Of a DNA stretch of 64,000 nucleotides, positions 1,345 to 62,836 are shown in pieces (the stretch's first letter is position 1; each line of letters opens with the position of its first letter). A program made the translations under genes and the position numbers. The stretch spans positions 3,959,232 to 4,023,231 of the forward strand of contig NC_057756.1 in NCBI RefSeq assembly GCF_004010195.1, in the 5' to 3' direction. The notes beneath the pieces were generated by a model, which saw nothing but the letters and a program-made list of their open reading frames with translations, did not search any database and was not told where the DNA came from. This DNA comes from Chiloscyllium plagiosum. Lineage: Eukaryota.

Positions 1345-1380
1345 AACTGAAGTCCTTGAATAATCGATTAAAGGATGCAG
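1345..1380 (+). CDS. 36-nt phase-1/1 micro-exon 1 of a coiled-coil gene, (E)LKSLNNRLKDA
   Basis: ctttattacag|AACTGAAG...GGATGCAG|gtgaga; open frame; hydrophobic residues at positions 2, 5, 9 and 12. Confidence 0.8.
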
Positions 1381-1499
1381 GTGAGATTGTGAAAACAGCA
1401 GCTTCTCGGAGAAAAGTTTAAAAGCTATGAATATGATGTTGTCTCCGATCCCTACATACCTGTGTCACTATCAAAGCAGGCATTATTTTTGCAAACGTT

Positions 1500-2610
1500 T
1501 CTGGGCCTTCGATCATGCGCCAAAAACTGAAATGAGGTGAGATGAAAGTGACAGCCCTTGATATCAAGCTTGGATTCAACTGAGCATGGCATCAAGAAGC
1601 CCCAGCAAAGCCCCACCTGATGCATACAAAGATTGGCGTGGTTTTCAAGATCAGCTGTCTCAGGTTCACGAGATCTCTACAAGAGTTTCTCACGATAGTG
1701 TCCCAGGCCCAATCATCTTCAGCTACTTTACCAATGACCTTCCCTGCATAATAAGATCAGAACTGAAGGTATTCACCGATGTTTCCACAATTCTCATCAC
1801 CATTCTTGATTTTTTCAGAGACTAAAACGGACCATTTTCAAGTACAACAAGATCTGGACAATATCCAGTCTTGGGCTAAGAATTAGCAAGTAATTTACGT
1901 GCCAAACAAATTCTAGGCTCTGATCATCACCAATATGCGACAGTTTCACCACAGCCCCTTGATATTAAATGGTGTTCCCATCACTGAATATGCACGGTCA
2001 ACATCGTTGGGGTTATCATTTTCCAGATACTCAACTGGTCTCACCAATTAAACACAGTGTCTTGAAGGTCAGGTGAAAAGTGAGGAACACTGCAATGAAC
2101 AACTCACCTCTTGACTCACTAAACCCTGGCAACGAGCTACAAGACACAACGGCAGCCCAAACAACATCCAAAAATCCTGGCTACATCCAGGATAAAGCAC
2201 TTAATTTTCACAGAATCTTCAAGAATCAATTCCCTCCACCCAAGAAGCTCAGTTTCAGCATTGTTCACTATCGGTAAGACGCATTGAAGAAATGAATCAA
2301 AGATCCTCAGCCAGCTAAATAAACCAATGACCAGTTCAATCGAGAAGGAAAAGGGCAATGGATATGTGGGAACACCAACATGTTCATGTTTCTTTTCAAG
2401 TCATTTACCATTCAGACATGGAAATATATCACCATTCCTTCACTGTCACTTGGTCAAAATTCTGGATTTCCTTCCCCAGGGGCATTGAAGGCCAACCAAT
2501 AGCAGGTGGACTGCGGTAGATCAAGAAGGCAACCGATCACCACTTTCTCAAGGGCAATTAGAGAGAGCAATAAATGTTGGTTAGCGAGCGACAAACATGA
2601 GTGAATATAT
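1500..2610 (+). mobile_element. Decayed LINE 3' fragment (CR1/L2 group), RT domain to tail
   Basis: ORF 1586..1825 contains VPGPIIFSYFTNDLP...VFTDVST, a decayed GSVLGP..F..FINDLP..FADD RT motif. Confidence 0.8.
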
Positions 2611-2970
2611 TTTTAATTAACGTTCAATCGCCCTTTACAAGTGAGCACATAGTGACAGTTATCTTTTAATGTCAAACTTTATTATAATCAATGGAAATTC
2701 TGGTGCCGTGCACAACATAACTGAACGCTGATTAGATACGTATTGTAAATGCCAGACAAAGTCATTCATATTGCATATCAAACTGTTCAAATTAGTAGAG
2801 GTTTGCCACATTCAGAGTGAAGGGAGACCAATGTAGGACTTTGATCAAGATACTTGGGATATACATAAACTAATTCAAGCATCATTGAAAAGTTAGATGA
2901 TGTTGCAAAGCAAAACAGTTAAAACTTGGACTGTGAAAATGAAAAATACTTTTTATTTCTGTACATACAG

Positions 2971-2997
2971 AGAGAAGACGCGATGAAGTTGAAGCAG
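2971..2997 (+). CDS. 27-nt phase-1/1 micro-exon 2, (E)RRRDEVEA
   Basis: ttttatttctgtacatacag|AGAGAAGACG...GAAGCAG|gttata; good acceptor, weak donor, purine-rich exon. Confidence 0.6.
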
Positions 2998-4410: not shown

Positions 4411-4437
4411 ATCAACGTTTCAGAGAGTTACTCGCAG
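4411..4437 (+). CDS. 27-nt phase-1/1 micro-exon 3, (D)QRFRELLA
   Basis: gtattattttcag|ATCAACG...CTCGCAG|gtaaaa. Confidence 0.75.
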
Positions 4438-7312: not shown

Positions 7313-7525
7313 GCTGAAAATGTGTTGCTGGAAAAGCGCAGCAGGTCAGGCAGCATCAAAGGAGCAGGAGAATCGACGTTTCGGGCATGAGCAGGTTTCC
7401 TGAAGAAGGGCTCATGCCCGAAACGTCGATTCTCCTGCTCCTTGGATGCTACCTGACCTGCTGCGCTTTTCCAGCAACACATTTTCAGCTCTGATCTCCA
7501 GCATCTGCAGTCCTCACTTTCTCCT
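7313..7525. mobile_element. Young palindromic non-autonomous element (Penelope-related) with hammerhead motif
   Basis: 80-bp inverted arms 7313-7392 and 7410-7489 with 2 mismatches by eye; flanked by ATCCCATA at 7304-7311 and 7528-7535. Confidence 0.85.
7397..7432 (+). ncRNA. Minimal hammerhead ribozyme motif
   Basis: CTGAAGA-A-GGGC-tcat-GCCC-GAAA-CG-TC: CUGANGA box, 4-bp stem II, GAAA box and GUC cleavage triplet. Confidence 0.65.
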
Positions 7526-8469
7526 AGATCCCATAAGGCCAAGTTGACCTATCTATCCTAATGATTTTTCATGTTACTCAGCACATCATCCTTCTTCACA
7601 TCAACCTGTTCGAACATATCAGTTTGTCTCACGCTGTACTCATGAAAGTGTATGTCCCTCTCAGTGATTCATGAAGCGAAGTATTCATTACGGACATCCG
7701 CACCTCCTCTGACTCCCGTTACAAGTTTCCTCCACTATCCTTGATCGGCCCAACCCTCACTCTGGTCGTCCTCCTCTACCGCAAATAAGTGTAGAATGCT
7801 TTCAGGTTTTTCATATTGCTATCCACTTATGCTTTTTCACAACCCCTTCTAACTCTCCTTCGTCCATTGTTCAGTTCCTTCCTGGATATCTTGTCACCCT
7901 CTACAGCTCTGTCTGATCCTTTCCTCCTCAAACTTATGTAACGTTCCTAATTCCTCATGACTAAATGTTCTGCATCACTTGTCACCCAAGGTTCCTTCCC
8001 TCTGCCATTCCTTCTTTGCCTCAGTGGGACAAACCTATCCAGCAAACGCAGCAAAAGCGTCCTGAACATCTCCATATTTCTGTCATGCATTTCCCTGTGA
8101 ACATCTGTTCTCAATTTACCCACTCCAGTTGCTGCCTAATAGCATTGTATTTCCCCAGTTTTCCCTCAATCAAAAACATTCTCAGACTGGATGGGCCTTT
8201 TCCTCTCCGTGACTATCATAAAGGTCAGGGATTTGTAATCACTGTCAGTGCAATGCTCTCCCACTGAGAGATCTAACACCTGGCCTGGTTCGTTGCCAAG
8301 CACCAAATCCAAAATGGCCTCCCCTATAATCAGACGATCTACATATTGTGTCAAGAGACATTCTGGACACATCTAACAAAAACTACTCCATTCAAACTAT
8401 TTGAAGTATCATGCTTTAATTGAAAACAAAAACTGCCCTTATTCTCTCCATAGTCCTCTATTCACTCTC

Positions 8470-9198: not shown

Positions 9199-9234
9199 AA
9201 AATCAAAAGTTGAGAGAGGACCTGAGAGATGCAG
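9199..9234 (+). CDS. 36-nt phase-1/1 micro-exon 4, (E)NQKLREDLRDA
   Basis: tcatattcctgacag|AAAATC...GATGCAG|gtgagt; consensus donor; same GATGCAG end as exon 1. Confidence 0.85.
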
Positions 9235-15190: not shown

Positions 15191-16542
15191 TTGGGCTGAT
15201 CCAACTCTTTTCAAAAATTCTGTTCAGAATACTTTCTGAACTTATTACAAAATGTCTTCATTTAGTGAGCTGAACATTAGTTTGTTTTTCGGAAACGAAA
15301 TATTTGATGTCTCTTGCCAATTTTAGAATTCGATTTTTATCTGTCTCAGTGGTCGTTTATGAGAGATATTGTTTTGAAATACAAAGTGTAGGTACGCTCT
15401 GAGATTTTAACCAGCAGAAATTATTTACAAGAACATTCATGACCAGTATATTGAACGTTCCGTATTTATCACAGAGGCCAAGCTGAACGCGAAAAAGAAA
15501 GGTAAATATAAAGAATCGTGGAATGTTGATCAAATATGTGCATGTACAGCATTCAATTATTTCCGAATGCGACATTGAATTCAAGTTTAAACTAAATTGA
15601 CGTGTTTAAATTTACGCTGTGGCTCATTCTCTTGTCACAAATTATTGTGTAACTAACAATTTTAAGTGGACATCTACAGGTATTGAACCAGTATAGACCA
15701 TTTGAATTACATAATTTACAGGAGTCTTACATTTTATCCACCAATTACGTGGACGACAGAAGCTTCAAGAATACTGAGGAAGAATTTCCTTTCTGAGAAT
15801 CAATTCCTCCACGTCAGTTACTTGCGATCACAAAAGAGAATTATTTCGCAGGTGTTGCATCACTATGTCAAACATACCATGCGTGCTATTGTAATCCTGC
15901 TGCAATTTTAAATCTGCCAATGTCATCAAGCAGAGTGAAGAATGACAGGTATCTTGAAACCTCAAGCTGTCATTAATGTCATGGATCACACGAGCGTAAA
16001 ATTTATTCTATCGTCTGTAATGTTATGATAGAAAACCTCTAATTTCAGCATTTCACATCAGTGACATTTTCACAGCATCCCATGCAACAAATCCATCTAT
16101 CATCTTCTTAACATTTTATTTATTAAGTTCAGCATTAAATAATATGGAAGTTCAAGAAAATGATCCCTATATTCCATAAATTTTGCATGGCTTTGTCACC
16201 TAAATATTACGAATTTATGAGAATTCTTTTTCATTTTATCAGTCATTGCCCTGCTTTGACACTTTCCCTCCTTTCTCTTGTTTTCTGACACGAACAGTTT
16301 GATTAAGAAGTATGTCATTTGTCCTCTTCGATGGAGTAAATGTTCCTATCTCTAGAGCATTGCCATATAATTTTAAAAAATAAACTATGTAGAAGCCTTC
16401 TCCTTCACATTGACTACACGCTAAAGAGAACATATCATACAACATTTTCTGTGGTGCACGTCTATCAATCTTGAACTGAAAATGCTTTATATCGCGTTCG
16501 TGACAGAAATATAACATTTATCGCTTTCAATTTCCACTTTAG

Positions 16543-16578
16543 ACATTACAAAGCTGCAAAACCAAATAGATGAACTTG
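16543..16578 (+). CDS. 36-nt phase-1/1 micro-exon 5, (D)ITKLQNQIDEL
   Basis: tttccactttag|ACATTAC...GAACTTG|gtaaga; I2/L5/I9/L12 heptad pattern. Confidence 0.85.
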
Positions 16579-25000: not shown

Positions 25001-25800
25001 AATCACAAATAACATTTGAATGGTGTCATCAAACTATGAAGACCATGTTGACGGTTTATAATGAATACTGTCCAGAATATAGGTTAAAAAAACTAACTTT
25101 ATTTGTACATTTCGCAAACAGTGATACACCTAGTGAGAAAACTAAATTAAGTCAATTTGACTTATTGTTTGGCTATTAGGTTAGCTGGTATTAAGGAGCA
25201 GATTTCGAAGAAAACACAAATCCATGTATACGTAATTAGGGAAAGATTAAATAGAACAAATAAATTTGCGACACAGCATTTAGAAAACAAATCCCAGGAT
25301 GTATGAAAGAGGAAGCATACAAATTTTTTTTAAAAATTCTGCCCAAGGAGATGACGTTTTACTATCAATTGCAGTTATAGGTGAACTTTAAAGGCAAGTC
25401 TTAATGAGCCCTATCAAATTGAAAGGAAATTGAGTGAAATTGGACAATTTAGTAAGAATGCCAGATAGATGAAATCTCCCAGACTCTGTCGTGTGAATCT
25501 ACTTTAAAGTAGATTTTAACCCGGAGGAAAGAAAAAGACGAATATGTTATTGATTCCAACAGAGAGTGAGGATCGAAGTTCAGATTATTTTGAATGGAAC
25601 ATTTCTCAAATTAAATTGCAATTAGGATGTTCTTAAAAATTGTGGGAAAACATTGAGTGGCATTCCAGAGGAAAATCTAAATAGCCCAAAACAGTCACGA
25701 CAATCACATGAGGAGATATGTGGGAATTACTATGAAGTATTAATATGATTACACAAACTCATAGGAAAAGCGATAAGGACCTTAAAAGTGTTCTCATGCA
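22100..25800 (+). mobile_element. Heavily decayed Gypsy (Gmr1-like) LTR retrotransposon: gag to integrase
   Basis: Integrase core remnant QWDQGSNCT..SIAYYSESQITFEWCHQTMKTML (24898..25179); colinear similarity with 52550-55640. Confidence 0.75.
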
Positions 25801-35796: not shown

Positions 35797-35823
35797 GAGA
35801 GGAATGCAAGAAACAGCAGATAG
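35797..35823 (+). CDS. 27-nt phase-1/1 micro-exon 6, (G)EECKKQQI
   Basis: attctttttataaag|GAGAGG...CAGATAG|gtaaga. Confidence 0.75.
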   Translation, partial: ERNARNSR

Positions 35824-38944: not shown

Positions 38945-39275
38945 GCCTCGTGGCACATTGTTTGGCACTTTTGCCTCCCATTGCCCGGGTCATGGATTTT
39001 AATCCACCCACGCCGATTGTCTTTGTGGAGTTTGCATATACGTCTTGTGACTTTGTGGGTTTCCTTTGGCTGTTTCGTTTTCTCTCATATTCTAAAGAAG
39101 TGAAGTTTTCCGAATAGGCCATGCTAAATTGCCTACAAGATCTGGGGATGTGTCAATTAGATGGATTAGCCATCGAAAACGCAGGGTTGAGTCGGTTTGC
39201 TGGGATGCTCTTCAGAAGATCAGTGTAGAATTCATGAACAGACTTGCCTGCTTCTGCATTGCAGGGATTAGATGA
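38945..39275 (+). mobile_element. Old HE1-type SINE
   Basis: GTGGAGTTTGCA and GGCCATGCTAAATTGCC blocks shared with the other SINE copies. Confidence 0.75.
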
Positions 39276-40124
39276 AGACATGGATACCGACATTCATTAA
39301 ATGGCAAATTTACAACAAAAGAAGTGCAGAAACCATTTATGCTCAAATTTAATTCGACTAGAAATGTTTTATGTTTCTTTAGTTCGGCTCCACAAATACT
39401 GGTCAGAACATTTCTTTACTTGGAATTGACATTCAGAAATGGCATCGAAAAGTAACACAGTTGTGCTACAGTTTTAGGTCAGAAATGTATTGCAGTTTGT
39501 TTGTTTTTTTAACAATGATGATATATTGTCGATCTTACAGGGTTCTAAAATTATTGCAGAAGGAAAGAAAATATGTCTTCAGAATCGAAAGCAATAAGTG
39601 AAATTGGCTGCTTTAACGAAACTGCAAACTGTTTTCTTTCCAGTTGTTATCTCAGAGCTACCATTATTTGACGACATGTATGATTGTCGGTCATATTCTT
39701 TGTTGCATGGGTGTTCGAACATTTCAAAAGTTGATAAGCCTTTTAACGATATTATTACTCTGTGACACATACAGCAGGGGATGTGAACAACGATGGAAAA
39801 ACTGAGCAAGGTCATTTTGCATTCAAATTCAAGACGGTTGAACTATTTTTGGTGCAAGAAATGAACAATTTATTGAATGACAACAGAATGTGAAGTATGA
39901 ACTTTTCTTCTCTTACTGTACTTTTTTTCGATGACATGCAATGCTAAGCTCGAAGTACTCATTAATGTAAACTATTGTGGCATGAAACCTTTCATCGATT
40001 ATTACATTGCACCGATATTATTAAGTAAGATATCAAAGAAATATCAACTCGGTAATGATATCTACATCGATACTATATTTTACTATTTGTCTGTTTATCT
40101 ATCAACGTGTCTATCTGTCTGTAA

Positions 40125-40192
<68 letters not shown>
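40125..40192 (+). repeat. (CTAT)17 microsatellite (GATA type) with degenerate flanks
   Basis: Perfect tetranucleotide run of 68 bp. Confidence 0.97.
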
Positions 40193-40522
40193 TCATTTGT
40201 TGATCTGTCTATTTTTCTACCTAAACCTTGTGCTATTTATACCCGTCCAGTTCCCCCTGTCGCTTTATCGAACTGCCTTTCCATCAGGATAGTTCATTAT
40301 GATCGATGCAATGAATGACACACCTTCATTTCCTTCTTTCAACAAACTGTAAAGAAAATAAGAGGTTTTTTTTTAAAAAGTAGGTGGTAATAAGATTTTC
40401 GAAAGCTTCGAAAATATATTATCTGAACTATTCCCACTGAAATTTTATGTGGCAACCAGAATGTCTCACACTTGAGAACGTGAGTGAATACATTAAAATA
40501 TCGCCTGTATCTTTATTTTCAG

Positions 40523-40549
40523 AACTCCAAGATCTTCTGCAAAAGACCA
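40523..40549 (+). CDS. 27-nt phase-1/1 micro-exon 7, (E)LQDLLQKT
   Basis: atctttattttcag|AACTCC...AAGACCA|gtaaat; strong acceptor, weaker donor. Confidence 0.65.
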
Positions 40550-42149
40550 GTAAATATAATTAATAATTGAAACCAAGGCAAAATACTGATAGCAGAGGAA
40601 AATGTTCAATTTAAATTCCACAATTTTTGAATGCTTTTGAAACGACCTACATTTAGAAGTTACCATTTTCACTTAAAAAGAATATTACTCCCAAAATGCA
40701 ATGCTGGGAGCAACACCAACAACCAAAATGTAACGCAACACGCACCAGCAATGTTAGACTAATGTTAAAAAAAAAAGTCGTTTGAACAAGGAAAATTTGA
40801 ATTGATTGCCAAATTTGACGTTGGGAATTCAAAGGCGTTAGTAATTTCACAGCTGCCTTAATTTTCACATCTCTGAGCAGGGAAGAATGCGATAGACAAT
40901 TACAAGTGTTGGAAATTAAAGATAAATGATAGTATTGTGCTGAGTTGTGATTATTCAACGGTATGAAAGCTCAAGACAACCTGGATGAGGCAGATTATAT
41001 TTAATAGGAAAGAATCATTTGGTTTTGTTTTGGTGTATCGGGAGGCGGTACTGCTAAGACAAGAAATGTATAATGGTTGTACATTGAATTGTGTTACTTC
41101 AAACGAAATTGCACTTTTTTAGAGGAAAGCTTGACGGCATGATATTGCATTATGATAGAGCAGGCTGATGGCCAACGTCGTCAAGACATGCAAACATGTT
41201 GCTCTGGAACAGAAAAGTGCCTATTAGTTGAAGTTTGTAATGCAGTGCAGATAAATTAATTCAGTCGACACTTTAAATTCATAGGGCTAATTCTGTGGTC
41301 CTGCACTATCCTGCCGTTGCCCATGCATTATCAGACAGGATAGAGAATCACCATATCAGGAATAAAAATGTTATGTGCAGAGTCAATTGTCGTTCGTTAC
41401 AGAATATGAAGGAACATATATGATCACAACTGAATACAAAGCAAGCACAACAGCAATCTAACATTACGGATTCATTGGTGATAAAGATCTGAATGTTAAA
41501 AATACCAACTATCAATTTCATCGAACAAATTGTCGTAGTACATCGAAGATAAGTTACATTTGTCAATGTTAATGAAAAATCTCGTCGGAAATGCACAAAA
41601 TTCAGAAAAAGAATGGAAGCAGTATGAGACAATCAAAAAGAAAACACAGGGTGGAGGAAATGTGTTTTTCTTGTTTTTAAAGTAGATCAATACAAATCAG
41701 AAATTTGCAATAAATAACAGCATTTGACGAAAGAGGAAGAGGGACAGAGATCAAATGCCATGTGGGAAGTGAAACAAACAGACAAATAAACCTGCACAGC
41801 TGTATAATCCACTAACGGACTGACTCAGCTGACTGCCAATGCTGTCTTTTTCCAAGTATTTCTGGACATAAGAATTCGTTCTAAGGAAAGACAACAAACA
41901 GTGAAATTCATCACTGACCATGGAGAAACATTTGGTGGGGGGAATCGGGATGGGCGTTCGAAATCGAAGTAGGAGAACAGCTAAGTGTACTTTTGAAATT
42001 TAAACAAGTTTATTTTATAAAAATTTGAAGTAGTGCGCAGTGATTTCTTTTAAATGTATGTTTTATTAAATTGTGTCTCTTCATTGATTTTAAAAGATAT
42101 ATAATGTAGCAGTGTTTTAGATCAGGTCTACAGTGCTATTTTCTGTGTA

Positions 42150-45100
42150 TGTGAACAGTTAAGGTGCAAAGCTGGCAGAGTGTTGTCATCTTCCTTTTGG
42201 ATGTGGGGGCGTTGAAGGATTTCAGTTAGATTGCGAGGTCGAATAGGCTGGGGCTGTTTTCCCGCCAGCGTCAGAGGCTGAGGGCTGACCTTGTGGAGGT
42301 TTAAAAACGATAAGGAGCATGGATAGATCAGGGTGACACCAGAATTCTGTGTTGCCTCCTGGTGCCAGGATCAAAGATGTCTCGGTGGGAGTAAAAAAAA
42401 ATTCTCAAATGAGAGATGGAACAGCAGGAGGATCTATTACATTATAACTAACGAGAGGAAAGGACGACGTTCGGAAGAGTGAATGTAAGATTTTGGCAGG
42501 AATTTATAAGGCTGTTCGTCTAGGATATCTGGATTATTGCTGATGCAACGAGAATAGCAAGAGGTAGGAAGATAGAGCAGTTGAATGCGTGGCTGAGGAC
42601 ATAGTGCAGGGGAGAGGAATTCACATTTTTGGATCAATGGACTCTATTCTGTGTTAGACGACACCTGATTAATAAGGATGGACTGCACATGAATTGAAAA
42701 GGGACTCAAATACTAGCGGGTAGACATTCTTCGGCTGCTTGGGAGAATTTTGTAAAGGGTGGGGAGTTCGGAGTGTGGGACCCAGGCAGAAAGTGTAAAA
42801 ATAGATCAATATGATCTGGGTGTAGTTGGAAAAAAGGGACATGCAATACAGTCAAGGCAAGCATGGACAATGCAGAGAACGATTATGACTGATAAAGTTC
42901 GCTGCATTTCTTTAAAGCAAGAGGTATAATAGGAATGGTTGATGAACGTAGGGATTCCTTGACCTACTCTTGGGGAAAATGGCAGCACTCCGTTAACACT
43001 GAGAAACTTTTGGGGAAAGTAAGCATAATTATATTAGTTTAAAAGTAATGTTGGGAAAAGTTAGACAGGACCAAAATGTTAAATTTCAAACTTGGAGGAA
43101 TACTTATTTTCAAGGTATTCAGTAATAACTTTCAAAAGTTGAACGGGATGGATTTTCGGAGATAAAGAGATGTATGGAAAGTGGGAATCGATCAAGAATG
43201 AGCTAACGAAAGTCCAGAGACAGGTTGAACCGTTAAGGGAGAAAGGCACGACTAACAGTTATTAGGGAATGCTAGTTAACAAAAGAAACTGAGTTTCTTG
43301 TCAAGAAAAAGTTGGAAAAATTCTCAGGTGTAAACAGCAAAGATGGAGTGAAACCTTTGGAGAGTATAAAGGCAGTAGAAGTATGCTTAAGAGAGAAATC
43401 AGGAGGGAATAAAATGGGAAATGAAATGGCATTGGCAAACATGCTTAACGGAATTGCAAAGGGACTCTCCGAATATAATAAGGATAAAATGCAAACAAGA
43501 GAAAGAAAAGGGCATCTAAAAATTCGCCAACGTCGCCGATGTGTAGCGCTGCGGGAGACGAACAGAAGCTAAGTGTGTCTTTTGCATTAAAAGTGTATGG
43601 AAGCAAGAGAACTTGAGTAAATAAATAGTGCCATCTTGACAAAGGTCCATATTACCGACGAAGAGGCGGTGGACGTCTGAAAACGAATTAGGATGGGTAA
43701 AAGGCCTCATCTTGATCAGTTGTACGCGAGAAGTCTGTGTGAAGCCAGGGAAGTGATTGCTGGGTCCTTGTTGAGATACATACGTCATCGATAGCCATTG
43801 GTGATGTGCCAAAAGACGAGCAGTTCTCTTATGCGCTGTTGCTATTTAATAAACATAGTATGGGAACGTCAGGGAACTGTAGACTAATAAGCCTGACATA
43901 ACTGCTTGTGCGAATCCTGAGGGACACAACTGATATGTATTTGGAAAGGGAAGGACTGAATAGGAACAGTGAACATGGATTTCTGTGCGGGAAATCCTAG
44001 CTCTCTAACTTAATCGAATTCTTTGATGAAGTTCCAAATAAGATTGATGAAAGAAGAGCAGTGGATGTGATCTTTTTAGACTTCAGTAAGATGTTTGACA
44101 GGGTCCCTAATGATATATTTCAAAACAATGTTCGATCGCATCGAACAAAGGTAGAAATGACCATTTAAATACTCACTTACCTCGAAGGTGGGAGATGGAG
44201 TGTGGTGGTGGGAAGTTGTTTTTTGATCTCAAATACACGACCAGCAGTGTGCCGTAAGGATGGGACCAAGATCCATTTTTGTTTCATTTATATAAGTGAT
44301 TTGTATTTGAACATAATAGTATGGTTAGTAAAATTGTAGATGACACGATAATGTATGGTGTGGTTGACAGTGAGGAACGTTATCTCAGAGGTCAACAAGA
44401 GGAAGGTCAGATGGACAGGTGAATGGGCATATAGCAGGAGGAGTTTTATTTAGCTATCTGTGAGTTGCTGCATTTTTAAAGGGCAAATAAGGACAGGACA
44501 TACATACTTAATGGTTATGTCGTTGAAGTGCTGATGACCAAAGAGGCTTTGGAGTTTAGTTTCCTTTTTGCATGAAATTAGAGTCGCAGGCATACGGGTT
44601 AGTGAAGTAGGCATTTGGCACGCTTGCTTTGTAGGTCAGTATATTGTGTATAGAAGTTGTAGTTGTACAGAATATTGTCTCGGCTACATCTGCAATACTG
44701 CATGAAATTCTGTTCTCTTTCCTATGGAAAGTATAATGTGAAAATGGAAAGGTTTCAGGAAAGATTTCCAAAGATGCTACCAACTTTGGAGGGTTTGAGC
44801 ATTTGGGAGAGGCTGTGGCTACTTTGCCTGGTGCATCGGAGTTTGAAGAAATCACGATTGATATGCACAGAGGGAATACCTAATGTCTTTTCTTCCAGCG
44901 TAGCGGAGTCCACAACTACAAAGTATGGGTTTAAGGTGGGAGGGGAGAGATTTTTAAAAGGACCTAAGGAAGAACCTTGTAATGCAGAACGTGGTGTACA
45001 TATGGAATGAACCGCTAGAGGAAGTACTGGAGGCTTATACAGTTGCAATATAGAAAAGGCCTCAGAATCGGTATAGGGATAAGCAGAGTTTAGATGGATA

Positions 45101-48876: not shown

Positions 48877-48903
48877 TGAGAACACTGCTTGAGAAAGAAA
48901 ATG
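48877..48903 (+). CDS. 27-nt phase-1/1 micro-exon 8, (M/V)RTLLEKEN
   Basis: catttattccatag|TGAGAAC...GAAAATG|gtaagt; consensus donor. Confidence 0.8.
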
Positions 48904-51780: not shown

Positions 51781-52549
51781 GGGTGACGAAGAAGAGTTAA
51801 ATGTGCATTAATTGGCATTTATCACATTTCTATTTCTTTCAACATGAAATACTGATCTAATGAGTATGAATATTTCTAAGAACTTTCAGAAGTCACTTTG
51901 ATAAATGTGTTCTGATTTATTTCATTTCCTCATGTTGATGTCAAGTTTTATGCTTGGATTTCCGAATATCAGTTAAGCCTAGAATTTCTCAATCTGATGG
52001 ATCATGTCAATGCATTTTTTTCTCTCATGAGTGCATTTATTTGAGAAAGCCGTGTAAAATCCGGTGCAATGCTCATCTGTGAAGAACAGACTCACATCAG
52101 CCCTTAAGCCTTCAATTTTTGTTTTTTTTTGGAAACGAGATCGAATTGTAAGGACAAATTAGTTGCCTTGAGAAATTCTAAGTTGGTGAATTTCTATCTA
52201 AACAATGAAGTCAGTGTTTGACTAACTCTAACTGAATGAATGTGTGAGTAGTTAAATGTGTGGCAATGTGAATTAGACCATTTTTGGATCGTGTGTATTT
52301 GTGTGAATTCTGAAATTGTTTCAGCTTCACATAACAGTGCAGTTATCATTTAGTTAGATCGTTAATATTCTGGAGCATGTAGGCGCAAACTATGCATTAA
52401 TCGATGAATCTCGTTTCTCCTGCATTACCACAAAATCACAAACTGCGAATTCGACATATCATGCCAAAAGATAAGCATCCAATCATTTTACATTTCACGA
52501 GCATATCTTGCCAAAGAGCACTTACATTGCATTCTCGTTCTCACACTCC

Positions 52550-55500
52550 AAAATGGTTGATAAAACAACTCTTCTCCACAAAACTCACCGAAGAAATTGA
52601 ATTAAAAAATAAGCAGAGCAAAAGAATAACCATGAGAGATGAAAGAGAGAGAGAAAGACATAGAGGAGGAAACGAGAAAGAGAGAGAGCAGGACAGAGTA
52701 GAAAGAGAACGAGAGAGAGAAGAAAGAAAGGGAGAGAAGGTTCTATGCGGAGCAAAGAGAGAGAAGAAAGATAAAGGTAAGGGCAGAGAGAAGTGGAATT
52801 TTACAATTTGCGAATTAGTCAGTAAAATAAAGTTAAGAGGATAGAGGTGAAAAGAAAAGCAACTGACCTATATAAATATATGAAAATATTGGCAGATTTT
52901 ATTGAGAAAGATGTGGAAGCCTCCAAAATTTCATTTGAAAAATTGGCTCGGCAGTTGGATTTGTCAGAGAACATGCTGGTAATGCTCGTTCAGACTAAGT
53001 TGGTATGCAGAGCTATTGAAGTATATGTAGCGCTGTTAGTTGAAGGAATAAGTGATTATGCAGATGTCAAACAGGCTATTTTGTGTACTTATGAATGGTT
53101 CCAGCAGCGCATTGACAGCAGTTCCGAAACATGAAGAAGGAATTTGGTTAGACATTATGTTGAGCTTGAAAGAACTAAACAATGTAATTTTTGTAGATGA
53201 CTGTGGGCCTGAAAATAAATAACACTTATGAGGTTCGAAGAGTGATTGTTTTCCTGGAGAAGTTTTAAATTCACTTCTATAGCTGATGAGAATTAATGTC
53301 GTTAAATAGAAATTTGAAGGAATGAGAAGAGCAGTAGATATTGCAGATGAATGCGCATCAGTGCATAAAGCAAAAATTAGCTTCGGCAAGTATTTCATTC
53401 TGTGAAGGATAGAAATTGGGACAAAATGTAGATCCTACACGATAAAACAATGATTAGAGCACACTGGTCATAGTTTAACACAGGTGAAGAAAGAAGCCCA
53501 AGAGAGTAAAAAGTAGGTGAAAGGTCACAGGTGTTTCAACTGCCATAATGTGGGACATGTAAAGTCACAGTTCTGCTCTTTGACGAAAGGCACTGTGGGC
53601 AAAGTTGGAGTAAAAGATGCTAAGTCATGGCATGAGGGAAATTCTTAAGGAACCCCCTCGAAAAGTCGAGAAGGTACAGGAGAGTGCACAGCATATTCAG
53701 AGGCTTCGTATTGTGTTCGTGCATGACCCCTATAAAGTTTTGGCCTCTGTGGGATAAGTTTCATCAGGAAGAACAGGGGACAAGGGAAAGAAGTTATAAT
53801 TTTGAGAGTTACGGGATCTAACCAGTCTCTTATAGGAATAGATGAACGTAATTGCACAGTTTGTGACATTACCCAAGAGAAGTGGTAATTTGTGGAATAG
53901 ATGGACAGAAATTTAGTGTTCTCCTCTGTAACATCAGGTGGGAGTGTCACATCAAGATTGGATGAGTAACAGTGGGAGTGATTGACACTTTGTCAGTTCC
54001 AGGAATGCAGTTTTTTTCTACGGAATGATTTAACAGGATCCGAAGAGAGAGTCATGCCTCTCGTTTTTGAGAAGCCAAAGGAAGACTCTGGAAATTTTCC
54101 AGGCTGTATAGTGACAAGATTCCACTGTCATAAATAACAGCAAAACGCAAAACTTCAAGCAGAAACATGAAGGAGTTTATTTTAAGCAGACATCCTCTTT
54201 GATGTAATGATGCAAGAAATAACTGAACAGGAAGAGGAGAAAGTGAGGTCTGCAGATGCTGGAGATCAGAGCTGAAAATGTGTTGCTGGAAAAGCGCAGC
54301 AGGTCAGGCAGCATCCAGGGAACAGGAGAATCGACGTTTCGGGCATAAGCCCTTCTTCAGGAATGAGGAAAGAAGGGTTTATGCCCGAAACGTCGATTCT
54401 CCTAAACAGGAAGAGGGTCAGGCAGACGTGTTTAGTCCTGAAATGCTAATCGACTTACAACAGTAAGACCGAAAATAAACTGATGCATACATTGATGCAT
54501 GTTCAGAAAATGAATCCAAATGTATTCCTGAGGGATATTATCTTAAAGACAGAATCCTGAGATAAAAATGGAGACCATGGCAGGTTATTGCAGACGGAAG
54601 TGCACCAGATTGTGTTGCCAGTAACATACAGAGAGAAAGTCGTATGGGTAACACATGAATTACCAGTAAGAGGTCACCTCGGTGTGAGGAAGATTCAGGC
54701 TAAGGTACAAAAGCATTTCCATTAGCCTGGACTGAACTGATGGATTTCAATTTTACCATACATACCATATGGGCTAAATAGTCGGCAAGTCACAGGCAGT
54801 AATAAAACTAGCGCCTTTGTTGCCAACACCAATGTTCGAAGAAACATTCATGCGGGTTATAACTGATTTTATAGGACCGTTCCAAAAACTAAAAGTGGAA
54901 AAAAGTTCGAGCCTAACCTAATGCATGTGTCTACAAGGTTTGTGAAAACAATTCCATTATGGAGTATTAAGGCAAAAAGAGTGGTGGGGGAGTTAACTGC
55001 TTTCTTTACGCGGGATGCCCTATCCAGATAGATTCAGTCAGACCAACAGTCTAAATTTACATCTTGGCTGTTTAAGGAAATCATGAATATCTTAGCTGCT
55101 CAGAACTTTAAATCAAGTGCGCATCATACTGAATCCCAGGGAGTTTTGGAAATTTGGCATAAACCCTGAAGACCATCTTAAGAGCGTACTGATGGGATTA
55201 TGCGAATGATCGGATAAAGGCATCCCATTTGTATCGTTAGTCATTAGAAATATCCGAACTTGCTCTGTTTACTCCGTTCGAGTTAGTATTTGTCTATGAA
55301 GAGAGATGGCCTCTTAAACTAATATAAGAAAATTTTACAGGACCGAAGTCAGAGATCTCGTACTTGATTATGTATCCGAAGTGAGGGAGAGATTAAATCG
55401 GGTAAGTGATTCAATTAAACAGCACGTGAAGAGGGCAAATAGAGGGAAGCACGTAGTAGATTCAAAATACTGAAATTCGAACGTACTCCCATGGGCATTA

Positions 55501-55640
55501 AATAATAGAATTAGTACCAATCATCAGAGATCCCTCTGAAACCAAGCTCAATGCTCCGTATAAATTAAGAAAAAAAATAAGTCAGGTAAACTTAACTGGG
55601 AACGATGCCCGACAGAAACTAAAACTTTATCATGTACATC
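52550..55640 (+). mobile_element. Decayed Gmr1-like Gypsy element: gag, zinc knuckle, protease region, integrase
   Basis: EKDVEASKISFEKLARQL gag; CFNCHNVGHVKSQ knuckle near 53532; HELPVRGHLGVRK..KHF, IQSDQQSKFT and SAHHTESQG integrase motifs at 54650-55150. Confidence 0.88.
54235..54403. mobile_element. Young copy of the palindromic hammerhead-bearing short element inserted in Gypsy
   Basis: Near-identical to the reverse complement of the 7313-7525 copy; minus-strand CTGAAGAAGGGCttatGCCCGAAACGTC; AACAGGAAGAGG repeated at 54226-54237 and 54405-54416. Confidence 0.88.
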
Positions 55641-57604
55641 AATGTGACAATATGCTCTGCAGTTACATATTAGTCTGACCATTCCACTCCAATGGATTCT
55701 AAATTGTATTGCTTACGACCTTCATTGAAAATCAGGTCACAATTAAAGATAACTTGCTTTCTCAGACTTTTTGCACAGAAGGTATATGAACAAATTTACA
55801 CAGTTTTCAGTTATTGCTATTCTGCAACAATGCACCTCCGGATCAATGTATATTGGAGCCAACACCATTGGTAACATGACAGAAGATTTGTCAGAATCAA
55901 CAATCTTTTGCAACGTCCAGAGTTTATCAGATACATTTAGTTTACATGCATTTAATTGAGTTCCTTGAACATTGACTAATTGCTGGTGGTGGATTATGGA
56001 GGCAGAGGTGCCTCATCTGTTCAGCACTTCTACCTCATATTCTATACATGAGGTTCCTATTTTTTTCAAATCATACGTGTTCCTCATCCATTGTTTAAAA
56101 TGTTGATATCGAAGTGTACTGTACAGTCTGTTATTTGCTTAATAACGCACCACCATGAAAAGCTGGATGTTCATTCGTTACGTGTTGTCTTCGTCTTGTC
56201 TGCACCATTCTTTTAGAGTTATCTCACTTGCGAGTGGCCTTTTAATATGTCTTATTATCTCCACGTTGAATCCTCCTCATTGGCTCAAACTCAGCTATTA
56301 AAAGTGAATATTGGACTAAAACAAAAATAAAACAGTTGCAAGAGGTTTTGCAAGGAAGCCAGAAAAGTCTATGCATTTGTGTATGGGATGATACCCATCA
56401 TCTTGGTGGTGGATGGAACGTTTTATATTACCAGCAGAATTTCGATGATTATGTCAGTGGTAGGTGTCTTTGGAATTGGCAAATTATTGATAGTTGGGTT
56501 TCCTCTTTTTGAAGCTGTGTAATATCACAAACCTGGTTACAGTGATCGGAATGTGCCCTTTACTTATCCAATACTGGGTACTGACTAGTTGTTGTTCCTT
56601 TTATAATTTTGGACCCTTGTCATTCATGGATTCGAGAGTGGTGCTGAATAATGTTTAATCATTAGCAAACATAATGACTGGTGAACTTACGATGGATGTA
56701 AGGAAAAGGGCGAAGTTACCATCAATGTTTTGGCTGTGGATTGTGCGCGATCTCATGCAGTGACAATCAGTGTGTTGATTTGTTGAACGCTTTCAGCGAA
56801 ACAGAATTTATATGAACAGTACTGTCGAAATGAAAATAAAAATTGAACTTGTAGTAATTTTCTACTAGAAAACATAACTGACCTGATACAGCAACTTAAG
56901 CATGGAACTATTCTAATCTTGCAACATTCCGTAAACACATCCCTTGACAAAAAGCTAAATTGAAGAACAGATTCTTAAAGCAGGAGAGAGCACTTGTCAA
57001 AGAGATTTCAGGGACAACATCAGTCAGTCATGAGGCATTCACTGAATCCTGCAATCTTTCCTGGAATTCAGTCTCTTTTGCCTGCCACAGCTAACCAAAC
57101 TAGTAAAAAAAAACCTGAAGTGAGAAAACTGACCATTCTCCTGAAATTGTTAAACTATGCACTTTGAAATTCCTCCACCATCCATCTTTTACGATCTCTA
57201 AAAAAAGCCCAAAAACATAATAACGTTGTTAAAGTGATAGCATCGTAGCGATATAAAATGTTGACAAAGCAAAACACAAAATCTACAATCCATTGCACAA
57301 GCTCATCTTGTACAGTGACTTCAAAACAAAACCCGCCTCTACATCAAATTCAGCAGATGCATTGCTGCACAGCGGCCCTGCAGTTCATCAACCAGACAGA
57401 AACAATCATGTTTTGTGTTATATTGCATTCCTTAAATGTAAATTCGTCATAATTCCCAAAATTCATCCGAAGCATCATTTGGGCCTTCACTACCTTGGAA
57501 GAAACATATGCCACTTCAAGATGCAAAAAAGTGAAGACAATGCCACGGCAAATTGATGATATGCTTTTTTCATTGACTATTGTTTATTAAAAATAAATAT
57601 TCAT

Positions 57605-57950
57605 TCAAAAGACATGGTTATCGCAGGCTAGGTCAGTATTTTTTGCTGGTCCCTAGTTTTTCAGATAACATTCAAGAGTCAACTACATTACTGTGGTTCT
57701 GCAATCAGGTATAGGACAGACCACGTAAATAGAGCAGATAATGCCCCTCAAGGACATTAGTGAACAAGACGGTGTTTTTCCATGCAATCAGCAACAGTTT
57801 CATTGTCATTATCGCACACTTAATTCTTGGTTTCTATTGAATTCATATTCCACCTTCTGCCACAACGGAATACGAACATAGATCACAAGAACAATACCTG
57901 AGTGTCTGGACAAATTGAAAAGGGCAAGTTTCACTATTCCTTTGTTTCCC
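57605..57950 (-). mobile_element. Old SINE-like repeat
   Basis: Begins with the reverse complement of a tail similar to 2555-2605; AAGGACATTAGTGAAC block. Confidence 0.5.
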
Positions 57951-59249
57951 TTAAGAACTACGAAAACAGAATTTTAATTTTGCACTTGCCATCAATGCTT
58001 ATTAAGGACTGATTGGTGTTCGGAGACATTTTGCAGAAAGTTTTTTTTTCCAAAGAGAGCATTTTGATTATTGTTTTAGGATGAAATTGCAGAGAGAGGT
58101 ATTGATGTGATCTTTATTTTGTTGGATTAGTTGAAACGTGATTGGGCTTGTGATTTGAGGAATATGTTTCAGCTTCCACCATGACAAGTGAGTTGAATCA
58201 TTTCTTTGGTGAAAACGACGATGGTATCCTGTGAAGAACCAGAGAATCCTTCAAAGAAAGCAATTTACCACCCTGACAGAATCGGGCCGTGACATCACTC
58301 AAACTCAAAAACAATCGATCAACAATTTTGTTGCTTGATCTAATTCAGAATTCTATGAAGTTCTAGACAACAAATAATCACAAGCAAGTTCAACCTTGGA
58401 GGCTTCACCGAATATCAAATGAATGTTATGAAGGAATGCTTCGTGTTTTTTGATCATTTGCAGAAGACTGAAATCTATTTTCTGATAGTCCGAGCACGAA
58501 ACTATATTTTTGTCCAATGAACAAAAAGTAATATCTTGATATAAGTTGGGTAAATATTTTACAATATTGGAAGGCTACGGAATCCCTAAAGTGTTTATTT
58601 TTGAAATAGTGAAGTGCACACTGTTTCTTCTATTTTAAATGACAATGAACATGGAATGAATTGAAGTTTAACATGAACAGTGGGCACTGCTGAGAACCAA
58701 AAGTGGAGGGTTTTGGGAAGATTCGGATCAGTCACCAGGACTGAGGAGGGGAATGCAGAAGAGCTATTGACAGTGAACGATGTAAGAGAATCAATCAGAG
58801 GCGGGTTCTCAGAAGCGAAATGTGAATTCTGGGAAGTAGCTACTCAGTCACCACATGCGAGGACGGGCGCACGGAGGAGATGCTGACAGCAAATGGTGCA
58901 ATACCAAACCAGAAAGGTGTTTCCTGAGAAGAGAGTGGCGATGCTTCAGCGAAGAATCAGCTCGGTCACCTGGAACGCACAGGAGCGAATTGTATACAGG
59001 TGAGCTACAGCAGAATCACCACTTTGGGAAGTACTGCTTTGTGGTACAAGGGCTGCTGAAGTTTTAAGTATAACTTTGATGAATTCTGGGCTTTTGTGAG
59101 ATGGGTAATAACAACGAAGTCATTTATTTGGCAAAGCAGTGAACAATTGCACCTTCTGAAAGGTCGAAGTCAAAGGTGAAATTGAAGAAAACGGAATCCT
59201 GACGTCGCAACCAGCAGATAAATGAATGGTTGATGACTAGCAAATAGTT

Positions 59250-61260
59250 TTTCTTTCTACTCATTCTCCTTTTGCTTTGCTGCTGTTTTTGTTAGGTTAA
59301 TTGAATGATTAAGTCTTGGCTGCAGATCCCAGATCCGTGTAATGCTCTTTCTGTGCGATGTGGGAATTCAGCGACCCTCCTGATGTCGCTAACGACTTCA
59401 AGAGCAGAAATCTTGCCCAACTGTGGCTCCTGTCTGACCGATGCATGCCTCTGCAGCTGTGGCTACATTCAATTTCGAGCATGTGCAAGGCTGCAGGAAT
59501 CATGCATAGCATATAAAAATTGCAAGGTCGATAAGCTATTGGTGACCACCAGAGAGAGGAATATGACAAAGGCAGTGCATGGGTCACTGGTTGTCCTGAC
59601 TGATGTCCACAAAGGCGTGAGAGGTATATTCAGTGCAGACAGCAAGCAGCTTTTTTGCCAAACTGGGGGACTCAATTACTAGGGGTCACAAGTTCAAGGT
59701 GAAAGGCGAAACGTTTAAGGGAGATATGCATGGAAAGTTATTTGCACAGATTGTGGTGTGTACCTGAAACGCATTGCCAGTAAAAGTGATAGAGTTGGGC
59801 ACTACAGCGACATTTAATACATAACCAGCCAAATACGTGAATGGGCAGGGAGTGGAGTGAGAAAGAACCTGAGAAAATAGGCTACAGTTTTATATATAGA
59901 TCCTGGATCGGCTCAGTTTGGAGGGTCGAAGGGTTCCAGTGTGGTCATTTTCTTTGGTGGGTTTTTATTATTGTCGTGTGCTACTAAGTGTTGGATTGGC
60001 AGGATTGGAAAGGTTAAAATTTGGCTTGAGGGATGATGCAAGAGAGGAAGTGAGAGTCAAATTCATTTCACTTTGAGATTGGTTCTGGTCAAGTTGGCAG
60101 CTGTGCAAACCAGAAGGTCTGCACCTGGGTAAGTTCCAAAGTCATGCTTGGACTGTTTGCTAGCGGTGTTAGAGTGGTTTAAAGCTAATATGGCAGGGGA
60201 GAAGAAGCAAAAACAGGTAGTTTAAGGATGGTATAGTGGGCTTAGTAACCAAAGGCAGAAATGGGAAAGTTGAAGACAGCGAAAGCAAAGGCTATAAAAT
60301 CGAAAATGGCAAACTTATATTGCAATGCTAAAAGGTCAATAAATATTTTATAAAAAGAAGCCTGAATGCTCTGTGTCTCAATTCGAGGAGCATTACACCA
60401 AGTTGGATGAATTAACTGTGCAGGCAGTTATTAGTGGATGTGATATAATTAGGATCATGGAGAACTGGCTCCAGAGTGATCAAGGATTGGTACTCAATAT
60501 CTTGGAGTATTCAACGTCCGGAAAAAATGGCCGAAATACCAGTTCGAGTATTGTTTACAGGTTGGTCTCTTAGCCTGAGGAAGGGCATTTTTGTGATGAG
60601 GGAGTCCAGCAAAAGTTCAAGAGACTGTTTTTGAAATAGTAGAGCTGATATCAGAAGGAAGACAGATTGACGAGGCTTCTATTCACGGAAATGTGGAAGA
60701 ATGGGGGAAATCCCTTTGAAAGATATAAAATTCTAATTAAACCGGACGTACTAGACGTGTGAAGAATGTTCCCTATATTGGGGAAGTCAATAAGTACGTG
60801 TCACAGTCTAAGAATAAGGCGTAAAACTGCAGACCTGATATATGTATTAACTTCTTCTCTCAGGGTGTTGTGAACCTGTGGAATGCTCCACCATAGAAAG
60901 CTGCTTGGGCCAGTTTGTTAGATATAATGGTATGAAGAGAAAGCTGGAGTGCTATATTGAATTTGCATCGACAGATATAATCATATTGATTGGTGATGCA
61001 GTATCAAATGGCCTACTGCAGTACTTAATTTTCTGTATCTGTTTTGCTCAAACTGGAAAGGAAATATCTCCAAATTTTCACATGAAACTAGGCTGAATTG
61101 CAGTGTGTGCTGTGAAGAGGATATAAATGTTCTGCAGATGAGTTGGACAGGCTACTGAGGGGACTCGTATTTGGCAAATGCAACATAATGTGCATAATAT
61201 GAGGTTATCTGTTTTGGTGACAAAACAGGAAGGTAGGTTATTTTCTGATTGTTGGCAGGA
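59250..61260 (+). mobile_element. Cluster of decayed CR1-type LINE fragments
   Basis: 3' ends near 59680-59950 and 60560-61030; endonuclease start CDIIRIMENWLQSDQGLVLNI (60373..60573). Confidence 0.75.
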
Positions 61261-61950
61261 ATATAAAAACATTACCTCAAAAAATTGCAAGCTGTCACTC
61301 GCAAAATATTCATGGATAATATATTCCAAAAAATTGAATTGACAAGGCAACAGATGTACGGGGACACAATTCTTCATCCTTTTACATAGAATTGTAAGAG
61401 CGGAATATACTGCCTGTTGCTTTCTTTCAAAATTTCGACGCTTCCCTCCTCAGTGGCACTAAAGATTGATAAGATTGAACTCGATTATTGGAATGGAAAT
61501 ATCTGAGCAAAAACCTCACAAGGGAATTGTGGATAATCGACGCATAATGGTGCAATGAAAGAAGTCCATATGTCCTAAATCAATTAAAATATATATCTAA
61601 TTCCTTATGTTGTTCATGCATTATTTAAACTAACTTTGTTAACGTGGCTTGTTCCAGGAAGCTGGGGGATGTTGACATTCCTCAGATATGAAGCATTAAT
61701 TTATAATCTAGCCACTGATTAATTCCAGTCCCTTTGGGAAGTTTCGGGAATTGCTGACTACTTTACGTGCATCAATCTTCTTGTTCCAAAACGTTTTCAA
61801 CGTGTGATTCAAGGAAGATTAAGCAAAACTTGTTACCTCTATGTATCACAGTGAAATGTTCCTTGTATCCACAAAACACTGAAGTCTCCAGTTTTCTATT
61901 AAAATTGAGTCGACATTTCAAGTTTTGAGAATCTTATGTTTTCTTCTCAG

Positions 61951-61986
61951 AAGCGAAGAAGTCAAAATTAGAGTTCGATGAATTAG
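61951..61986 (+). CDS. 36-nt phase-1/1 micro-exon 9, (E)AKKSKLEFDEL
   Basis: gttttcttctcag|AAGCGAAG...GAATTAG|gtaagc; ends in DEL like exon 5. Confidence 0.85.
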
Positions 61987-62809
61987 GTAAGCAGTGTTTG
62001 TAAATGGATTATTGGAAAATTTTGTGGTAGTTTGTTTAGAAACAGTGAAAAACTTCACATCCGGACGTACTTGTTGTAGTTATCTAAACTAATTAATCCC
62101 ATAGTTGTCAAGGACTTCGAGATTCTTCTGAATCATTGCAGCGCGCATCTCCTTGTGGTCTACACGTTATACAGCATATATGTAAACTTTGGATTTCACA
62201 CAAGGTTAATGAAAAATTCTGAATACAGAAAATGTTATGGTAAAACACGCCATTCTGCTGCCTCCTAAGATACCATCACCATGCATGTAATCGTTTTCCA
62301 TGAGCTGACACCTGGCATTTGTCTATTACATACTACTTGTCTACAATGCCAAAGAGTAACGGCTTGTATTCAATTCTATCCTCCACTCGAATAGACAGAT
62401 AAAGTACAATATATTGCTGAAAATAAAGTTTTTTTGTATCTTAAATGTCAGGCTTTGCATTGTTAAATTCATATACATTCCATATTTCCTGGACATCATA
62501 ATGGTGAAGAAAAAGGAAATAAATTGCAGTTGCCACCGTCTTACAAGCTATATAGCTACTTTATTATCAGGGAAAACCGACTGGTCGTGATAAAGCTTAA
62601 GGGTTACTACTCCTGAGGTGAGTGGAGATGAGAGGACAGTGTTCTTCATTGTGAGCTCACCCGTTTTCGCAGCTGAACCCATATTGTTAGCTTCACTCTA
62701 TATCACAAACTAGCCACCAAGCTTAATAGCTTTCACGAAGATAGCATATCAGTACAGAAAAGTGCAAATATTGTGCTATAACTTAAATGATTACATATTC
62801 CTACTTCAG

Positions 62810-62836
62810 AAAGTAAACTCAAGGACTGTCAGAAAG
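62810..62836 (+). CDS. 27-nt phase-1/1 micro-exon 10, (E)SKLKDCQK
   Basis: tattcctacttcag|AAAGTAAAC...CAGAAAG|gtgagt; consensus sites. Confidence 0.85.

Follow-up and report, generated by a model that had tools for sequence, protein, structure and literature searches.

A candidate giant coiled-coil gene of 27- and 36-nucleotide micro-exons with a probable distant B30.2 exon in Chiloscyllium plagiosum

Butyrophilin (BTN) genes and the chicken B-G genes are the closest described systems to the gene considered here. As described in parts of two papers, BTN genes have IgV and IgC exons and just a few heptad exons (PMC4046983, PMC12841164), the number of heptads varies among the BTN genes of cartilaginous fishes (PMC12841164), and B-G tails form a long coiled coil from many small split-codon exons, with exon duplication and variable exon use (PMC4046983). 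Here we analyzed a stretch of 64,000 nucleotides (nt) of Chiloscyllium plagiosum (contig NC_057756.1, or C47, of the 3.56-Gb RefSeq assembly GCF_004010195.1; C47:3959232-4023231), which we call the window; positions with a sign are relative to it. The window appears to lie inside a giant protein-coding gene of the + strand, whose coding sequence in 344 kb would consist only of symmetric 27- or 36-nt micro-exons (9 or 12 residues) separated by introns of 0.8 to 19 kb. Each predicted micro-exon carries two split-codon bases at its start and one at its end (phase 1/1). The spliced product would be a proline-free, Leu/Glu/Lys-rich alpha-helical coiled-coil rod, apparently built through repeated tandem duplication of exon blocks, and the gene most likely continues past the window and ends, 554 kb farther on, in a phase-1 B30.2 (PRY/SPRY-type) exon. 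It would be one of a cartilaginous-fish coiled-coil-plus-B30.2 family, with two more giant copies on the same contig. We give a probability of about 0.62 to this reading of a giant + strand coiled-coil gene of a chondrichthyan coiled-coil-plus-B30.2 family, the link to the B30.2 exon included.

A preliminary description of the window had reported ten + strand segments that join into one open frame. All ten are present at the exact coordinates given there, each bounded by AG and GT and 27 or 36 nt long, and the joined 306 nt are stop-free over 101 codons in the phase-1 frame only, the other two frames having 10 and 8 stops. The window contains 288 AG-(27 or 36 nt)-GT segments without a phase-1 stop on the + strand versus 243 on the - strand; with at least 70% E/K/R/Q/L/D/N, the numbers were 22 versus 5, and the 22 include all ten reported segments. 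All but one of the ten exons end in G, and each starts with two codon-completing bases, mostly for Glu or Asp. The nine introns between them range from 823 to 19,218 nt. The purine content is 67% in the exons versus 51.7% in the window; GAR-rich exonic enhancers aid the recognition of very short exons. Splice sites were scored with a simple position weight matrix of general consensus frequencies. By this measure, the mean acceptor score of the ten exons was +2.2 versus -7.4 for all 4144 AG of the window, and the mean donor score was +4.3 versus -5.0 for all 3568 GT.

The scan was extended to 344 kb (-130 kb to +214 kb), which comprises the window, 130 kb upstream and 150 kb downstream. The main filter required a segment to be open in phase 1, to have at least 70% E/K/R/Q/L/D/N and to reach a splice sum of at least 4. 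On the + strand, 13 segments of 27 nt and 11 of 36 nt passed, while the remaining lengths of 12 to 99 nt divisible by three gave 7 together; a single one of the 31 + strand candidates was 21 nt long, and 24 of the 31 were 27 or 36 nt. The - strand gave 3 passes over all lengths. Again on the + strand, there was 1 pass in phase 0, 4 in phase 2 and 7 for lengths not divisible by three. When composition was ignored and a splice sum of at least 6 was required, 27- and 36-nt segments numbered 16 and 13 on the + strand versus 1 and 0 on the - strand. This specificity for strand, phase and two exact lengths shows that the pattern is not due to chance. The ten segments are a sample of a much longer micro-exon array; the count of at least ten in the preliminary description was right as a lower bound and far too low, since the same exon type extends from at least -126 kb to +190 kb. 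It is highly probable that the segments are true coding micro-exons.

Paralogy within the array is confined to the exons. Exon -19277 and window exon 40523 are identical at 21 of 27 nt, while their 60-nt flanks agree at 17 of 60 and 16 of 60 positions, the random level. Five of the six differences are synonymous when read off the alignment by eye, an excess that is partly built in because the pair was chosen by amino-acid similarity; the sharp end of the conservation at the AG and GT borders is the stronger argument. Diverged paralogue sets with near-random flanks were also found for exon 9199 (with -35030 and +160000), exon 62810 (with +153643), exon 92946 (with -108838) and exon 48877 (with +176386 and -17871). 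In its C-terminal half, the window block has the exon order 27(Cys)-27-27-36-27(Cys). This order is found again upstream of the window, at -22184 to -8604, and partly downstream of it, at +173190 to +190166.

When all open 27- and 36-nt segments were compared with one another, the result was swamped by short interspersed repeats, and flank filtering was applied. One such repeat contains an open AG..GT 36-mer (GQAASREQENR) and occurs on both strands, with sites at window positions 7342-7377 and 54300-54335 and at -122334, -107416, -79868, -16986, +92092 and +202524, besides the - strand copies. Farther upstream, 916 kb from the window, the class-G exon at C47:3042790-3042820 (+) shares 26 of 27 bases with window exon 40523-40549, and a class-H exon lies 1.4 kb past it. 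By its sequence, the 26/27 identity suggests a fairly recent large duplication or a gene conversion inside the array.

The joined 101 residues contain 17 Leu, 16 Glu, 14 Lys and 1 Gly and are free of Pro, Trp, Tyr and His. The windowed 3.5-residue periodicity of L/I/V/M/F/C was 0.403 versus 0.194 +/- 0.088 after shuffling, a value matched by 49 of 2000 shuffles, and would fit an alpha-helical coiled coil with stutters. Cysteine recurs three residues past a leucine (..KLKDC.., ..KLEAC.., ..RLQNC.., ..KLTEC..), where it would occupy a heptad core position; the rod may be cross-linked by disulfides. Other kinds of repetitive protein were considered. A collagen reading was rejected on a frame without Gly-X-Y, and elastin was rejected alongside; KEKE exons of the triadin/junctin type were rejected on their different composition.

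The preliminary description had proposed that the downstream sequence be inspected for a B30.2 exon, and one was found at C47:4577499-4578016 on the + strand, 554 kb past the window. It is the contig's one match (at 4,577,660) in a SPRY profile scan of the whole assembly, in which 150 of 293 candidates were scored. The exon, in locus L030, has an open frame of 177 codons that ends in TAG, and its SPRY match has E = 4.9e-18. Its acceptor, ...ttgtgttttgcag|TC, is in phase 1, and a preceding exon ending in G would yield Val at the junction. PDB matches include TRIM58 (1e-19), pyrin (1.6e-18) and BTN3A1 (8.5e-17), which would make the predicted domain a B30.2 of the TRIM/pyrin/butyrophilin type; Pfam gave a SPRY match and no PRY match on this exon. 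Three candidate phase-1 micro-exons precede it on the + strand of L030: one of 36 nt at 1004-1039 (8.3 kb upstream), one of 21 nt at 7469-7489 (1.8 kb upstream) and one of 27 nt at 8391-8417 (0.9 kb upstream).

Among the matches scored, the nearest B30.2 paralogues in the assembly lie on the same contig, at 994,509 (+, 60% identity) and 1,296,638 (-, 42%). The 0.99-Mb copy (locus L031) has the same phase-1 acceptor and homologous upstream exons of 21 and 36 nt, and its 36-nt exon shares DW.D..K..K with the 27-nt exon of L030. On another contig, C37, most of the 150 scored SPRY/B30.2 matches lie between about 9 and 34 Mb in dense runs (for example at 27.5-34.4 Mb), many of them in open frames of about 190 residues; this looks like a very large TRIM/B30.2 cluster.

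The window array and the B30.2 exon were linked by exon patterns. Degenerate patterns, AG and GT borders included, were made from three classes of window exons and searched for in the whole assembly, of which the contig is 0.30%. The class-H pattern had 9 genome matches (1 for the reversed-pattern control), 5 of them on the contig and all of these on the + strand. When the pattern was relaxed, there were 25 matches (control 10), 8 on the contig, and with one mismatch allowed the class-H pattern fell to the background level genome-wide (114 versus 96 in the control). The class-J (Cys exon) pattern gave 46 matches (control 51), 8 on the contig, and the class-G pattern gave 19 (control 13), 6 on the contig, all +. 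Among the matches listed at one mismatch, a list that stopped within the contig, was one further + strand class-H site, at 0.475 Mb, seen only at that setting. Outside the contig, a class-H exon-like site at G000:C17:37012694-37012724 (+) differs at 4 of 27 bases from the exon at window +176386; judged by its sequence, it may belong to another member of the family or be a duplicated fragment.

The contig matches form three blocks, at 0.475-0.607 Mb (+), 1.331-1.917 Mb (-) and 3.014-4.225 Mb (+), and the strand of every block is that of the B30.2 exon 3' of it (994509+, 1296638- and 4577486+). In the - block, the nearest pattern match is 34 kb from its B30.2 exon. In the block of the window, a class-G match at 4,224,813 extends the array 90 kb past +190166, the last micro-exon seen in the 344 kb, towards the B30.2 exon. 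From this arrangement we infer that the contig carries three giant paralogous genes, each with a micro-exon rod and a B30.2 exon, and that the window exons and the B30.2 exon would belong to one transcript. The window probably lies in the third such gene. Its predicted extent is 0.75 Mb or more, and it rises to 1.56 Mb when the exons at 3.01-3.13 Mb are counted in.

Relatives of the B30.2 exon are found in other cartilaginous fishes. A word-based protein search restricted to 311 to 2000 residues gave none close to it, the best matches being TRIMs at 27 to 35% identity. Among shorter proteins, a 178-residue Chiloscyllium punctatum model (P0005; 59% identity) corresponds to the last exon alone. 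An exhaustive representative search with the B30.2 exon gave 2682 proteins at E <= 1e-3, and the relatives named here are the single-domain matches with the highest identity to the query. They include P0052 (XP_042192744.1, 'nuclear-pore anchor-like', 1697 residues) of Callorhinchus milii, P0028 ('zinc-binding protein A33-like') of Narcine bancroftii, P0014 ('TRIM39-like') of Scyliorhinus canicula, P0164 ('TRIM69-like') of Leucoraja erinacea and a Callorhinchus 'TRIM58' formerly named 'butyrophilin subfamily 2 member A2'. The subfamily labels used here are P0052, P0028, P0014, P0023, P0164, P0034, P0005 and P0011; these relatives are automatic XP_ models under borrowed names.

The N-terminus of P0052 is a hydrophobic stretch, which may be a membrane anchor or a signal peptide, and RAKRRKK comes next; the C-terminus is the B30.2 domain. 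Between them lies a coiled coil of about 1400 residues. It contains 20 Cys, which mostly stand in [KT]EL..C[QK]..L contexts like those of the window Cys exons. Narcine isoforms differ by in-frame coiled-coil cassettes of 6 and 9 residues, and Callorhinchus isoforms show a 7-residue difference and a 9-residue difference, the latter immediately ahead of the B30.2 exon. The Leucoraja protein P0164 reads ...DWDTIKNNK-VPVKMNPESSDPQF, which is the junction predicted for L030 and L031. We also built a tree of 37 B30.2 domains, with rows selected by hand from 150 listed matches. Ten rows belong to the subfamily, both contig exons (4.58 and 0.99 Mb) among them, and fell into one clade (100/100, on a branch of 0.91), and the 13 Ig-bearing (BTN-like) and 14 RING-bearing (TRIM) rows were interleaved on the other side; the contig's B30.2 exons thus did not group with BTN B30.2 domains. 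Both contig exons share the divergent B30.2 of the subfamily (SPRY without a PRY match), and the locus also has its micro-exon cassettes right before the B30.2 exon (21/27 nt in L030, 21/36 nt in L031) and its Cys-punctuated coiled coil, as predicted from the window exons.

The preliminary description had offered two readings of the array, the tail of a butyrophilin- or B-G-like receptor or an undescribed micro-exon coiled-coil gene. The first is partly supported: the phase-1 micro-exons and a same-strand downstream B30.2 exon with a phase-1 acceptor fit it, and the separate clade and the lack of an Ig domain in the sequences scanned speak against family membership. In a true receptor of this type, the exons for the signal peptide, IgV (possibly IgC) and the transmembrane segment would lie a long way upstream, and a greatly expanded micro-exon coiled coil and the B30.2 exon would come after them. 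The shared 3' architecture speaks for it, as do the cartilaginous-fish BTN genes with variable heptad numbers and the B-G tails of many small split-codon exons that the cited excerpts describe, the older butyrophilin name of a Callorhinchus relative, and the hydrophobic start of two relatives (P0052 and P0164), which could be the transmembrane exon of a truncated model. On the other hand, the separation of the B30.2 clade at 100/100 and exon lengths of 27 or 36 nt rather than 21 nt argue against it, and Ig (V-set or C2-set), RING and B-box domains were found in 0 of the 7 scanned relatives' models, while the 13 next-nearest B30.2 proteins do carry V-set or C2-set domains. Nor was an Ig domain found among the open reading frames (ORFs) scanned in the 344 kb: Pfam searches of 163 of the 170 + strand ORFs of at least 95 residues (7 border-crossing ORFs were left out) gave no Ig, SPRY, RING or B-box domain and no transmembrane-plus-Ig exons, in a region that did not reach the 5' end of the gene. 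A genome scan for V-set domains, saturated with 150 of 1319 candidates scored, had one match on the contig among those, at 10.2 Mb, and carries no information on this point. We consider a true butyrophilin/B-G-type receptor unlikely.

The region could alternatively hold two or more tandem genes, with the gene of the window ending before the B30.2 exon, for example as a B-G-like tail without B30.2. A single gene from 3.0137 to 4.578 Mb would need at least 1.56 Mb, the unread gaps measure 0.7 and 0.35 Mb, and the 26/27-nt identity of exons 3042790 and 40523 suggests a recent large duplication. Against such a division, the matches scored include no further B30.2 exon of the subfamily from 1.30 to 4.58 Mb, the two paralogous genes likewise need at least 0.52 and 0.62 Mb from their mapped micro-exons to their B30.2 exons, and no terminal-exon-like or domain ORF was found in the 344 kb. 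Tandem genes come next in order and have a small chance of being the right explanation. That the segments match AG..GT by chance, or are what is left of a decayed gene, is very improbable: the exons are known here from genomic sequence, two donors are weak and the public model of the close relative P0005 contains the last exon only, while the strand, length and phase specificity, the ten open junction codons, the exon-limited conservation between ancient paralogues and the contig-specific, strand-consistent pattern matches all argue against it.

Several points weigh against the preferred reading of one giant coiled-coil-plus-B30.2 gene. The exon junctions are predictions from the genome, and the ten include two weak donors, GTTATA (2997) and GTAAAT (40549). 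The heptad periodicity just modestly exceeds that of shuffled sequences. The patterns for class D and for the exon end ...GATGAAYTN|GTAAG matched no contig sites beyond those already known. All patterns were built from window exons and allow synonymous variation, so that they map relatives and cannot gauge selection. The unread stretches comprise 353 kb from 4224813 to the start of L030 and 0.7 Mb at 3.13-3.83 Mb. The XP_ records of the relatives are computed models, and BLASTP of the joined window peptide against 11 fetched proteins, a tiny database, gave nothing significant (best E 0.4); homology of the rods rests on motifs and architecture.

The individual exons of the window are all on the + strand and in phase 1/1; peptides are given for the inner codons. 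The 36-nt exon at 1345..1380 (LKSLNNRLKDA, with AG and GTGAGA borders) resembles the 36-nt exons at +152812 and +79893. The next, of 27 nt at 2971..2997 (RRRDEVEA), has a pyrimidine tract-AG acceptor and, with a donor score of -2.1, is the least secure of the ten. It is followed by a 27-nt exon at 4411..4437 (QRFRELLA; acceptor 3.2, donor 2.8) and a 36-nt exon at 9199..9234 (NQKLREDLRDA; donor GTGAGT, 9.2), the one with paralogues at -35030 and +160000. The 36-nt exon at 16543..16578 (ITKLQNQIDEL) is similar to the exon at -123956 (KTALQDEVDSL). A Cys-bearing 27-nt exon at 35797..35823 (EECKKQQI) has an AAG-type tract and a weak acceptor (-0.2). The class-G exon at 40523..40549 (27 nt; LQDLLQKT) has the paralogues at -19277 and C47:3042790 described above, and the class-H exon at 48877..48903 (27 nt; RTLLEKEN) is the source of the pattern with nine genome sites. 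The last two are a 36-nt exon at 61951..61986 (AKKSKLEFDEL; acceptor 5.6, donor 5.4) and the 27-nt class-J exon at 62810..62836 (SKLKDCQK; donor GTGAGT, 8.3), which has a putative core Cys in a motif like the EL..C[QK] of P0052.

A candidate extra 27-nt phase-1 micro-exon on the + strand at 15475..15501 (AKLNAKKK; acceptor 3.3, donor 3.5) is absent from the preliminary description. It passes the splice and composition filter, no paralogue of it was found, and it is unconfirmed. A search for larger exons (39 to 400 nt, all phases) gave no convincing one, and spots resembling CpG islands coincide with repeats and yielded no promoter.

Pfam matches in the 344 kb fell in 6 ORFs, all of retroelement type (RVT_1 four times, RT_RNaseH_2 once and Lipase_GDSL_2 once). 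Remnants of the long interspersed nuclear element (LINE) type lie in the introns on the + strand, with a weak RVT_1 match at window 31743-32171. Locus L018 (window +124 to +134 kb) holds a GDSL-lipase-like ORF beside RVT_1 ORFs, of LINE type and on the + strand, and L025:67-1035 (window +194 kb) holds a 323-residue reverse transcriptase ORF, also LINE-type and +. The GC skew of the + strand is negative in the first 12 kb of the window, and it reaches 0.11 to 0.27, a marked excess of G over C, at 24001-44000 and 52001-64000.

If the preferred reading of a giant coiled-coil-plus-B30.2 gene is correct, the architecture is extreme: at least 0.75 Mb and possibly 1.56 Mb would be devoted to a gene coded almost wholly in exons of 9 or 12 codons, and the spliceosome would have to locate each micro-exon across kb-scale introns. 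Since every exon is in-frame and symmetric, any exon could be skipped without loss of frame, and alternative splicing could thus vary the length and sequence of the rod; the gene would be a natural system for combinatorial micro-exon splicing. The locus also points to a blind spot of annotation, with the public model of P0005 reduced to the last exon and relatives filed under names borrowed from TRIM or 'nuclear-pore anchor' proteins. A lineage of B30.2 domains separate from those of TRIM and butyrophilin would bear on the shuffling of B30.2 and heptad-tail exons in early jawed-vertebrate immunity, and a function as immune sensor is conceivable. Tentatively, and with the odds somewhat against it, one may go further and see here an unnoticed family of megabase-scale genes, three on this contig, that encode a Cys-studded rod of 1000 to more than 2000 residues with a private B30.2 clade from 100-200 interchangeable 27/36-nt cassettes; such proteins might be combinatorially diversified sensors or tethers, and the family might be a third independent use of the heptad micro-exon principle of butyrophilin and B-G genes, on a scale that no described vertebrate gene is known to reach.

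We found no paper that describes such a gene in a search outside of which the subscription-only literature lay. Symmetric phase-1 cassette exons are a feature of elastin, of non-fibrillar collagens (27/36/45/54-nt exons) and of Schistosoma micro-exon genes. As at this locus, these genes use in-frame symmetric exons to code for a modular, combinatorially spliceable protein; they encode a different kind of protein (the window peptide has neither Gly-X-Y nor hydrophobic elastin motifs), and common descent is unsupported. In comparison with the TRIM proteins of class IV (RING-B-box-coiled coil-B30.2), whose coiled coil has about 100 residues, the predicted coiled coil is far longer and is built of micro-exons. 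The chondrichthyan coiled-coil-plus-B30.2 models resemble this locus in the divergent B30.2 clade, the long coiled coil with recurrent EL..C[QK], the in-frame cassettes of 6 to 9 residues and the junction ...DW.D..K..K / V-P... into the B30.2 domain; they differ in that their rods have no significant match to the window peptide, in a comparison made between proteins and not by exon structure.

Chicken B-G genes share with this locus a long coiled coil of many tiny split-codon exons that arose by exon duplication. The B-G exons have 7, sometimes 8, residues and belong to compact genes with an IgV exon and without B30.2, whereas the exons here have 9 or 12 residues, the introns are on the kb scale and the gene probably ends in B30.2; the B-G combination of a tail of many 21-nt exons and no B30.2 was not found here. 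In BTN genes, phase-1 micro-exons for the juxtamembrane heptads are followed by a single large B30.2 exon. The same 3' layout is seen here, where phase-1 exons of 21, 27 and 36 nt precede the B30.2 exon as in butyrophilin genes. Unlike BTN genes, the array consists of 27/36-nt exons rather than mainly 21-nt exons, with dozens of exons, and probably hundreds, in an array that is hundreds of kb to more than 1 Mb long instead of a short tail, its B30.2 domain falls outside the BTN/TRIM mix and no Ig domain was found. With these differences, the principle that the excerpts of PMC4046983 and PMC12841164 describe for B-G and butyrophilin genes, a coiled coil coded in tiny split-codon exons with a B30.2 exon adjacent in butyrophilins, recurs at this locus.

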